Virus record (IMG/VR): IMGVR_UViG_2534682108_000015
Coordinates: 1-17,603 of that record
Length of the DNA stretch: 17,603 nt
Source of the DNA: a virus
Taxonomy: Duplodnaviria; Heunggongvirae; Uroviricota; Caudoviricetes
Direction: 5' to 3' (one strand)
Positions 15,661 through 16,883 of this stretch are shown piece by piece. The stretch's first letter is position 1. Each line of letters opens with the position of its first letter. The notes under the pieces are model-generated. The model had not been told where the DNA came from and did no database searches. It saw only the letters and a program-made list of their open reading frames with translations. The position numbers and the translations under genes were made by a program.

Positions 15661-16010
15661 GATGTCTGTTTTTGTGAATTTTTAGATAGAATGTCTGCTG
15701 TGGAAATATGTATACCTCTTGTGCTCATTTATTTCAATAGATAGTTGAGCACTCATTGTGCTAATGGAAGAAGTTTTTTAATATGGAGTATCATCAAAAT
15801 CACACAATAGTGATTAATATTGCTATTAGATAAAGAAGTATCGCTAACTTTGATTTTGTTGAATTTGTTTTTAATAAAAGTTAGTGTGGTTTATATAGCA
15901 GGCATATGCATGCTGTTTTTAAAGAAACTTATTGCCCCTTTAGCCCTAATGGTCAGAGCGAGAGGTTAATAACCGCCAGGTCGCCGGTTCAAACATGGCA
16001 GGGGCACGAA

Positions 16011-16087
16011 GCGCTGTTAGCTCAGTTGGACAGAGCAATTGCCTTCTAAGCAATCGGTCACTGGTTCGAATCCAGTATGGCGCACCA
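16011..16087 (+). tRNA. tRNA-Arg (anticodon UCU)
   Basis: Manual cloverleaf: acceptor GCGCTGT/ATGGCGC, D-arm GCTC/GAGC, anticodon stem ATTGC/GCAAT with loop CTTCTAA, T-arm ACTGG-TTCGAAT-CCAGT, discriminator A, encoded CCA. Confidence 0.9.
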
Positions 16088-16088
16088 T

Positions 16089-16163
16089 GCGGTCATCGTA
16101 TAATGGCTATTACCTCAGCCTTCCAAGCTGATGATGCGGGTTCGATTCCCGCTGGCCGCTCCA
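16089..16163 (+). tRNA. tRNA-Gly (anticodon UCC)
   Basis: Manual cloverleaf: acceptor GCGGTCA/TGGCCGC, anticodon stem TCAGC/GCTGA with loop CTTCCAA, T-arm GCGGG-TTCGATT-CCCGC, encoded CCA. Separated from the tRNA-Arg by 1 nt. Confidence 0.9.
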
Positions 16164-16636
16164 TAGAGGATTATGGGACAGTATAGTGAGCATTTTTCTG
16201 CGTTACCTTTCATCGGTAAAAATAAGCATACAACAACTATTTATGCTGGCATTAGCTATGATAGTTATTGGTTTTCTCGGAATGTGTTTATTTGTTTACT
16301 ATATTCTTATCGATAACTGATATTTTTGATATTAATCCGGAGTGGTACAAACAAAAATATGAATTCGCTATGGAATCAGGATGTGTAATAAAAATAATAG
16401 TCACTAAGTTATAGTTTTTTTAAAATGTTAAAAACATCACATTTCATTATGTTGGGCACTGGAGAATACCCAGTCGTTTTGTTAAAAATAATTACGCATG
16501 GTGAATCCCCCTAAGCGGAGGGGCAATCAGCAACTGGTGTTTTGTCACCGACCCTTATCCTTTCTGTGCGCAGGTGCTGATACTGAACTCACCGGGAGGC
16601 ACCCGGCACCATGCAAAATTGTCTACACTACCACTG

Positions 16637-16665
16637 TAAAAAGCCCCTCTCCGGAGGGGCTTTTC
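16637..16665. terminator. Bidirectional intrinsic terminator
   Basis: GCCCCTC-TCCG-GAGGGGC (7-bp GC stem) flanked by an A-run (16637-16642) and TTTTC (16661-16665). Confidence 0.6.
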
Positions 16666-16672
16666 TATGGGC

Positions 16673-16700
16673 AAAAAAAAGCCCGCAGTGAGTGGCGGGC
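16673..16700 (-). terminator. Intrinsic terminator for leftward transcripts
   Basis: GCCCGC-AGTGAGTG-GCGGGC preceded on the plus strand by A8 (16673-16680), which is T8 after the hairpin on the minus strand. Confidence 0.55.
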
Positions 16701-16764
16701 GGGTCGCATGAATATACATCAGGTATTTTTATTATCGTGTTCTGATTTCTACCATCTGTGATAA

Positions 16765-16795
16765 GGCTGCGCAACTGCGCGGCCTTTTTCGTTTT
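16765..16795 (+). terminator. Intrinsic terminator-like hairpin upstream of the esterase gene
   Basis: GGCTGCGC-AACT-GCGCGGCC followed by TTTTTCGTTTT. Confidence 0.45.
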
Positions 16796-16883
16796 GCGGG
16801 CTGCGGTTCTCCTCTTTTGATTCTCCGTGTAGCCGGACCGTGGCCCGCAACTGTTGAGGAAAATCCCGGAAAGGGGAGGAATA

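Follow-up and report, generated by a model that had tools for sequence, protein, structure and literature searches.

The interval between tRNA genes and a NanS-p-type esterase gene in a decaying, stx-negative lambdoid prophage of Escherichia coli

The DNA considered here, hereafter called the window, is a stretch of 17,603 nucleotides from a virus of the Caudoviricetes (positions 1 to 17,603 of the IMG/VR record IMGVR_UViG_2534682108_000015). With the exception of one indel, its sequence recurs at 100% identity in a prophage carried by E. coli O157:H16 strain Res13-Lact-PEA12-26. The present analysis concerns the interval that separates a small cluster of tRNA genes from a gene for a NanS-p-type sialate O-acetylesterase, that is, the region where Shiga toxin (Stx) phages carry the stxAB operon. 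It also concerns the position of the late promoter that would be controlled by the antiterminator Q. An earlier note on the same DNA had made proposals on both subjects.

Features between the tRNA genes and the esterase gene

The features of the interval are as follows.

15934-16006, plus strand: degenerate ileZ-like pseudo-tRNA (21.6 bits with the tRNA model, gathering score 29; no call by ARAGORN)
16011-16087, plus strand: tRNA-Arg(UCU) (ARAGORN; Rfam, 68.7 bits)
16089-16163, plus strand: tRNA-Gly(UCC) (ARAGORN; Rfam, 62.7 bits)
16164-16465, plus strand: AT-rich 3′ flank of the tRNA-Gly cassette, 302 bp, occupying the place of stx in toxin phages
16466-16672, plus strand: STnc100-family small RNA gene, including an intrinsic terminator at 16640-16666 (Rfam RF02076)
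16673-16737, minus strand: candidate small RNA gene, a divergent allele in AsxR/AgvB position (alignment to the AsxR and AgvB models)
16700-16673, minus strand: terminator of this unit, with a hairpin at 16700-16681 and a U-run at 16680-16673 (terminator scan)
16751-16745, minus strand: −10-like TAGAAAT of the same unit (sequence)
16763-16796, plus strand: second intrinsic terminator, with a ten-pair stem and a T-run (−19.2 kcal/mol, z-score −4.1)
16797-16883, plus strand: leader of the esterase gene, with the Shine-Dalgarno sequence GGAGG at 16875-16879 (read from the sequence)
16884-17603, plus strand: 5′ part of the NanS-p-type sialate O-acetylesterase gene, starting with ATG at 16884 and running off the end of the window

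ARAGORN and Rfam place tRNA-Arg(UCU), then tRNA-Gly(UCC), where the earlier note had located them. The starting coordinate given there, 15933, is the edge of a degenerate tRNA-like stretch (15934-16006) that aligns with ileZ of the Sakai prophage Sp5. The tRNA-Arg(UCU) gene is nearly identical to argO of Sp5 from the D-arm through the T-arm; it is the homologue of argO, the tRNA gene that directly precedes stx2A in Sp5. With respect to a cluster of the ileZ-argN-argO type, argO is intact, ileZ is degenerate and argN is absent, with tRNA-Gly(UCC) as an extra member.

The tRNA genes are followed by a gap of 720 bp (16164-16883), which had been described as having no long open reading frame (ORF) and as leading to a DUF1737/SASA esterase gene. 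This description is borne out as far as credible genes are concerned. The gap consists of the tRNA-Gly flank, the STnc100-family small RNA gene, the AsxR/AgvB-like unit on the minus strand, the second terminator and the ribosome-binding site of the esterase gene. Terminator scanning and folding indicate two terminators on the plus strand (16640-16666 and 16763-16796) and one on the minus strand (16700-16673). The longest ORF of the gap (87 aa, 16498-16761) is unannotated in the source genome; it was rejected as a gene, having no Pfam match and overlying both a structured RNA scoring 123 bits and two terminators. Small minus-strand ORFs of the gap, which have no Pfam match either and also overlie structured RNA and terminators, were discarded in the same way.

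The assignment of the plus-strand RNA to the STnc100 family is based on a covariance model match that covers positions 1-206 of the 206 of the model (123.2 bits, gathering score 47, E-value 4e-27). The thermodynamic fold reproduces the closing helix, the inner hairpins and the terminator of the model. Among phages, the same RNA follows stx2B in VT2phi_272 (at a distance of 75 nt; 207.7 bits) and in Stx2_95, and it follows stx1B in the Shigella phage 75/02; the stx-negative PhiR5_1 has it too. In the literature, STnc100 has been placed 75 nt downstream of stx2 (PMC12370729), and it has been related to PasD, beside a sialate esterase gene (Zhu, Shabalina and Storz, 2026, preprint). Other members of the family are known to be expressed, as RNAs of about 200 nt that associate with Hfq. 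EcOnc27 and EcOnc42, two small RNAs found 3′ of the Sakai toxin genes, may be the same RNA. In alignments, several weak −10-like hexamers compete as the promoter of STnc100; therefore no start site is claimed. As a side observation, E. coli strain M3 (L016, 5284-5747) and one IMG/VR contig (L023, 3988-4451) have STnc100 twice in tandem (118.9 and 98.5 bits), with a TolA-like cargo gene on one side and the esterase gene on the other.

The unit on the opposite strand aligns end to end with the AsxR model, and AsxR itself (in VT2phi_272) as well as AgvB (in 75/02) are found at the same place and on the same strand, directly beside STnc100. Convergent small RNAs between a moron coding sequence and a conserved downstream ORF have been described in the Sakai prophages Sp3, 4, 5, 9, 10, 11, 15 and 17 (Tree et al., 2014; PMC4104026). 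The window has this layout, with a short, terminator-ended gene convergent with a plus-strand small RNA gene, between the moron site and a conserved ORF. The allele at 16737-16673 is present in 18 of 5426 complete E. coli genomes.

Further downstream, the terminator at 16763-16796 is invariant in Stx1, Stx2 and stx-negative phages, and the esterase leader is conserved in 75/02 and in E. coli relatives. The part of the esterase encoded in the window contains DUF1737, with SASA below the Pfam cutoff (19 versus 24.8 bits), and a GQSN motif at residues 85-88. The full protein of 644 aa, available from the source genome, has the organization DUF1737-SASA-DUF6645 and is 68% identical over its whole length to the nanS-p product of the O157 Stx2a phage VT2phi_272. 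The esterase was thus rightly regarded as NanS-p-like. Genes of this type are common in non-Stx prophages, which represent the majority case, and they are induced as late genes (PMC8065619; PMC10462455). De-O-acetylation of Neu5,9Ac2 has been shown for the EDL933 and O104:H4 NanS-p alleles only (PMC8065619).

Cargo of the toxin site

When the stx region of Sp5, taken as everything between argO and nanS-p, is compared to the window by blastn with a word size of 7, similarity is observed only at 16478-16803. Since similarity resumes only at 16478, the place of stxAB in toxin phages corresponds to positions 16088-16477 of the window, which contain tRNA-Gly(UCC) and its AT-rich flank of 302 bp. 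Stx1 and Stx2 phages become homologous to the window again 40-90 nt past stxB. At the homologous point, other prophages carry TerB with DUF3927, iraM, a TolA C-terminal-domain protein, or no cargo. The late genes are arranged in the order Q, PR′ (the late promoter, discussed below), small ORF, DNA methylase, tRNAs, cargo, small-RNA module, nanS-p and holin, with esterase, holin and lysozyme genes all lying downstream of Q and of the putative PR′. The order in the window is that of the Stx2a phage Stx2_95 (whose Q is 74% identical), and also that of Sp5 and VT2phi_272. The view that the interval is the expected cargo site is therefore well founded, both by the variety of cargo at the same point in other prophages and by the synteny with Stx phages.

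By blastn, the flank itself, 16164-16465, has no match among 50,697 phage records. It is found in 24 of 5426 complete E. coli genomes, with 82-99% identity and with a constant length in the copies inspected, and also in 7 IMG/VR contigs. An exact-pattern scan of one genome per species gave no match, a result that is uninformative about other species. The flank follows a tRNA-Gly(UCC) gene in 5 contigs out of 7, as it does in those genome copies that were inspected; in the two remaining contigs, no tRNA-Gly was called. One of the five contigs has the array Met(CAU; ileZ type)-Arg(UCG)-Arg(UCU)-Gly(UCC).

These data bear on the origin of the interval. According to the earlier note, the prophage would be either a toxin-negative relative of Stx phages or a phage that has lost the operon, and stx remnants might be sought between the tRNA genes and the esterase gene. 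Neither blastn of the spacer against phages, nor tblastn with Stx2A and Stx2B, nor blastn with the Sp5 stx region revealed any remnant in the tRNA-esterase interval; with Stx2A and Stx2B, tblastn against the window and the 38-kb source locus gave only chance matches, with E-values above 0.9. Descent from an Stx phage that deleted stxAB, the gap being the scar, could be imagined: the region as a whole is syntenic with Stx phages, its tRNA-Arg is of the argO type, the prophage is decaying, and repeated loss of stx has been raised as one possibility for the linked small RNA loci (Zhu et al., 2026). Besides the chance level of the tblastn matches, this scenario has to account for a filler without match in the phage records whose copies, 82-99% identical, constant in length and located behind tRNA-Gly, look less like a scar than like a long-established, independent cassette, and for the fact that nanS-p in non-Stx prophages is the majority case. 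Deletion of stxAB is thus improbable. Of the two terms of the initial alternative, the toxin-negative relative is retained; since there is no stx remnant, nothing indicates a loss of the operon, and the flank belongs to a tRNA-Gly cassette.

Whether the toxin site is really empty of coding sequence deserves consideration, in view of the following feature.

16186-16320, plus strand: orphan ORF of 44 codons, candidate small membrane protein (MSIFLRYLSSVKISIQQLFMLALAMIVIGFLGMCLFVYYILIDN)

In this respect, it may be imagined that the site contains a genuine small membrane-protein gene, a moron carried along with tRNA-Gly. Of 8 copies with 82-99% identity, 7 have the ORF intact; its start varies between GTG, ATG and TTG, and the stop, either TGA or TAA, is preserved. 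Most replacements are conservative, and the C-terminal half is hydrophobic. Relatives amount to eight protein clusters, all from E. coli, some of which were labelled 'putative membrane protein' by annotators. On the other hand, there is no usable Shine-Dalgarno sequence, variable sites are distributed 8/5/9 over the three codon positions, which is not the pattern of a strong constraint on the protein, and the 50 non-coding nucleotides upstream are at least as conserved. Moreover, the copy of strain M3 is disrupted, NCBIfam, Pfam and PHROG scans gave no family match, and the ORF is not annotated by RefSeq in the source genome. On balance, the existence of such a gene is conceivable but doubtful. 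Two other ORFs were considered at this place. A 47-codon ORF from the ATG at 16173 was rejected, its frame being broken in most alleles by a 1-nt indel just past the ATG. A 25-codon version of the hydrophobic ORF (ATG at 16243) gave way to the 44-codon reading, since a start codon farther upstream, in the form of GTG, ATG or TTG, is retained.

Taken together with the minus-strand unit, this ORF leads to the tentative idea, which we would rather not favor, that the toxin site holds two uncharacterised small genes rare in E. coli, the AsxR/AgvB-like allele at 16737-16673 and the membrane protein of 44 residues at 16186-16320. If this were true, the new 5′ region of the AsxR/AgvB-like allele could sponge a host small RNA other than FnrS or GcvB. 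In any case, the 44-codon ORF and the rare anti-small-RNA-like allele are the only elements of the interval that had not been described previously.

The Q gene, the putative late promoter and neighbouring genes

The region from Q to the start of the late operon contains the following features.

12441-12806, plus strand: Q antiterminator gene, 121 aa (Pfam PF06530, 177 bits)
12821-12846, strand not applicable: hairpin immediately 3′ of the Q stop codon (terminator scan)
14343-14428, plus strand: putative late promoter PR′, with a candidate Q-binding dyad and the first terminator hairpin (homology to PR′ of Sp5)
14343-14348, plus strand: predicted −35 element of PR′, TTACGC (sequence)
14347-14355, plus strand: near-palindromic dyad GCGGTCCGC, between the −35 and −10 elements
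14367-14372, plus strand: predicted −10 element of PR′, TACTGT (sequence)
about 14379, plus strand: predicted transcript start, corresponding to Sp5 position 646
14407-14427, plus strand: hairpin plus T7, first terminator of the late operon

The Q gene is located 3.2 kb upstream of the tRNA genes. Its Pfam family, PF06530, also includes Q21 and the 144-aa Q of 933W-type phages, and the protein weakly matches the Q21 structures 6P18 and 6JNX. The closest relatives are found in cdtI (86% identity), mEp390 (83%), SfIV (78.5%) and Stx2a phages such as Stx2_95 (74%). Behind the hairpin that follows Q begin opposite-strand morons (12850-14249, 1.4 kb), and the distance from Q to the putative promoter is about 1.5 kb (12806-14343). 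The same layout, with a hairpin and morons between Q and promoter, is observed in cdtI, mEp390 and E. coli strain M3. The conserved promoter block follows Q directly in Stx2_95 and PhiR5_1 and is 0.8-1.5 kb away in cdtI, mEp390, M3 and the window.

Positions 14372-14432 of the window are 82% identical over 62 nt (E-value 1e-10) to positions 639-699 of the region that follows Q in Sakai Sp5, and the block is also conserved in cdtI, Stx2_95 and PhiR5_1. A conserved segment, AAGAGTGGTTACTTCGCCACACAGCTTAAA, predicted to be transcribed, lies between the −10 element and the hairpin. In Sp5, position 646 comes 7 nt after a TATCAT hexamer and 22 nt after the Q stop codon; farther downstream, the only strong terminator ahead of ileZ (tR′) has its last T at a distance of exactly 258 nt from this position. 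The PR′ start of Sp5 has been mapped by differential RNA sequencing (dRNA-seq), with a PR′-tR′ transcript of 258 nt (Sy et al., 2020; PMC7547250). The genome versions differ, and it is on the basis of this spacing that position 646 would be the start mapped by these authors.

The strongest argument for a location of PR′ at 14343-14428 comes from the comparison of prophages with different Q proteins. When 11 loci are aligned, five sequence types unrelated to one another are seen in the 60-100 nt that precede the hairpin, and they sort by Q type across PF06530, PF03589 and PF06323. Downstream of the hairpin, all 11 loci have in common the 67-aa ORF, the methylase, the tRNAs, the small-RNA module and the esterase. 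The segment from STnc100 to the ribosome-binding site is 98-99% identical between the window (PF06530 Q), ES5 (PF03589 Q) and JKHS016 (third Q type). A Q-specific loading site must change with Q. Positions 14343-14406 do so and positions 16450-16500 do not; therefore the earlier placement of the Q-utilisation site and late promoter at about 16450-16500 is unsupported. This position is the 5′ end of the STnc100-family small RNA gene, downstream of the toxin genes in Stx phages, and is about 2.1 kb away from the homologue of the Sp5 PR′ at 14343-14428. Promoter activity and Q dependence would be expected at the upstream site.

It may still be asked whether the STnc100-like RNA could be the short PR′-tR′ leader transcript of the phage, in which case the late promoter and the Q-utilisation site would indeed be at about 16450-16500. 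With its length of about 200 nt and its strong terminator end just upstream of late genes, STnc100 resembles such a leader; occupancy of STnc100 promoters by RpoD has been reported for Salmonella LT2 (PMC10794520), the related PasD genes have a linked PF03589 Q at less than 10 kb, and a sigma-70-like match (9 of 12 positions) occurs at 16398-16426. However, the mapped PR′ of Stx phages is found 22 nt past Q, with STnc100 farther on, downstream of stxAB. The window has its own PR′ homologue, PhiR5_1 has the same PR′ and small ORF ahead of STnc100, and the STnc100 segment remains 98% identical behind three Q types when 14343-14406 changes with Q. All this makes a leader function of the STnc100-like RNA very unlikely.

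Altogether, the interval would very probably be a standard lambdoid moron site followed by the convergent small-RNA module of the late operon, without a toxin gene, and with the late promoter located upstream. The architecture is ordinary and largely documented, in a decaying stx-negative prophage. Considering these elements, the following mechanism may be envisaged. Late transcription would most likely begin at PR′, near 14379. In the lysogen, it would probably end early, at the hairpin and T-run of 14407-14427. There, the gap would probably give two small RNAs of the Hfq type, each from a promoter of its own, namely one of about 200 nt from the plus strand (STnc100 family) and one of about 65 nt from the minus strand (AsxR/AgvB-like), both ended by the back-to-back terminators. 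After induction, Q (12441-12806) would load at PR′, and the Q-modified polymerase would cross the small ORF, the methylase remnant, the tRNA genes, the tRNA-Gly flank and both plus-strand terminators. Such read-through would express the NanS-p-type esterase and the lysis genes. The place of stxAB, from the argO-type tRNA to the small-RNA module, would be filled here by tRNA-Gly(UCC) and its flank of 302 bp.

Several points weigh against this interpretation. The proposed −35 element of PR′ (TTACGC) is poor. The stem of the PR′ hairpin has only 4 G-C pairs and its fold is not clearly above that of shuffled sequence (z-score −1.5). The Sp5 transcript ends 258 nt downstream, at a second terminator, and the window is without the 5′ arm of this terminator; therefore the end of unmodified transcripts is uncertain here. 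As compared to the nearest alleles, those of JKHS016 and ES5, the STnc100 of the window is without the 4 nt GGTT (between 16570 and 16571), a deletion that removes the 5′ arm of an internal helix, where cmscan marks non-canonical pairs. The minus-strand unit (16737-16674) fails both Rfam thresholds, with 22.2 bits for AsxR (gathering score 63) and 13.9 bits for AgvB (gathering score 56). Finally, the terminase and portal genes are pseudogenes and the methylase is truncated; the late circuit may be non-functional now.

The last of these points is related to the condition of the source prophage, which is lambdoid and defective. Its integration site adjoins yjjG, and the integrase gene is the first gene, at window position 1. 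The source genome shows a stop codon within the large terminase gene and a frameshift in the portal gene (L001, 27251-33708, outside the window); therefore the prophage is unable to form particles. At the beginning of the late operon, two features are found.

14549-14752, plus strand: first ORF of the late operon, 67 aa, phrog_331 (labelled 'TrmB family' in relatives)
14903-15247, plus strand: truncated DNA methyltransferase gene (annotated pseudogene; positions 1-85 only of the 221 of the Pfam N6_N4_Mtase profile)

The 67-aa ORF is kept behind every Q type examined. The methyltransferase gene is cut after about 115 codons, its 3′ two thirds being replaced by a minus-strand ORF of 113 aa (15319-15660) that has no family match; full-length methylase genes are present in Stx2_95, ES5 and 2012C-4221. 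Among the morons behind Q, the minus-strand ORFs 13317-13646 and 13851-14249 match, respectively, the C-terminal and N-terminal parts of the 315-residue phrog_7651/DUF6731 family. The corresponding gene is intact as orf54 in phage cdtI; the two ORFs being pieces of one gene, the window copy is therefore a split pseudogene.

Far upstream, Rfam detects isrK (7537-7613, plus strand) and the C4 antisense RNA (7638-7725, plus strand) within an annotated 383-aa 'Rha family' ORF (7177-8328). The N-terminal part of this ORF annotation is therefore doubtful, and 7537-7725 looks like an immI-like antirepressor control region of the P1/Gifsy type.

Relation to known systems

Beyond annotation, the significance of these observations is small. 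They are a further illustration that, in Stx phages, the toxin site is a slot for cargo in general, bounded downstream by a conserved pair of small RNA genes, and that slot and small-RNA block are exchanged among prophages using all three families of Q antiterminators. In practice, the place to look for the late promoter of such prophages is the first terminator hairpin preceded by a flank that varies with Q, even when Q is more than 1 kb away, behind opposite-strand morons. The small RNA genes of the interval, including rare anti-small-RNA-like alleles, escape routine annotation.

The closest parallel is the moron site of the Sakai prophages (Tree et al., 2014; PMC4104026). Both have the order PR′, cargo, plus-strand small RNA, short minus-strand small RNA and nanS-p, with back-to-back terminators. 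The conserved 1.9-kb ORF of Sakai is nanS-p, and homology extends from 16478 to the start of the esterase gene. The window differs by the absence of a cargo coding sequence of the toxin kind, tRNA-Gly and its flank being found instead, and by a minus-strand RNA that is a rare allele below the AsxR and AgvB Rfam thresholds.

With respect to the PR′-StxS-tR′ region of Sp5 and 933W, the −10 region, the start site and the first 50 nt of the predicted transcript are homologous, the common part of the transcript being AAGAGUGGUUAC, GCCAC and a CCCGCC hairpin with its U-run. In both cases a dyad lies between the −35 and −10 elements, and Q belongs to the same Pfam family. The dyads differ, GCGGTCCGC in the window family (14347-14355) and TTTACGATCGTAAA in Sp5 (L008, 612-625), where it overlaps the Q stop codon. 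As candidate Q-binding elements, they would differ with the Q subtype. The 200 nt of Sp5 that carry the StxS body and the true tR′ are absent from the window, and 1.5 kb of opposite-strand morons separate promoter and Q, as compared to 22 nt in Sp5.

The plus-strand RNA shares with STnc100 (RF02076), itself related to PasD, the closing helix GCAUGGUG/CACCAUGC, the CCCCC hairpin, the CCGGG hairpin and the terminator, as well as the location directly upstream of a sialate esterase gene. It scores below the O157 copies (207.7 bits) because of its variable central part and the 4-nt deletion of one helix arm. Similarly, the minus-strand unit resembles AsxR (RF02703) and AgvB (RF02702) by its strand, its position convergent with STnc100 and its length. 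On its 5′ side it has CGAUAAUAAAAA, compared to CGAUUAUUAAAAC in AsxR, and it has the AUGC motif and the AC(U/C)CAC terminator loop. The 3′ region of about 42 nt that defines the family is kept only in part, the stem sequence differs and the middle is longer in the window.

Finally, the predicted esterase has the DUF1737-SASA-DUF6645 architecture of NanS-p enzymes (Saile et al., 2016, as cited in PMC8065619), in which prophage-specific domains flank the catalytic SASA domain at both ends. Its gene lies between the small-RNA module and the holin gene. Contrary to nanS-p of Stx phages, it belongs to a non-Stx prophage, which is the commoner situation.

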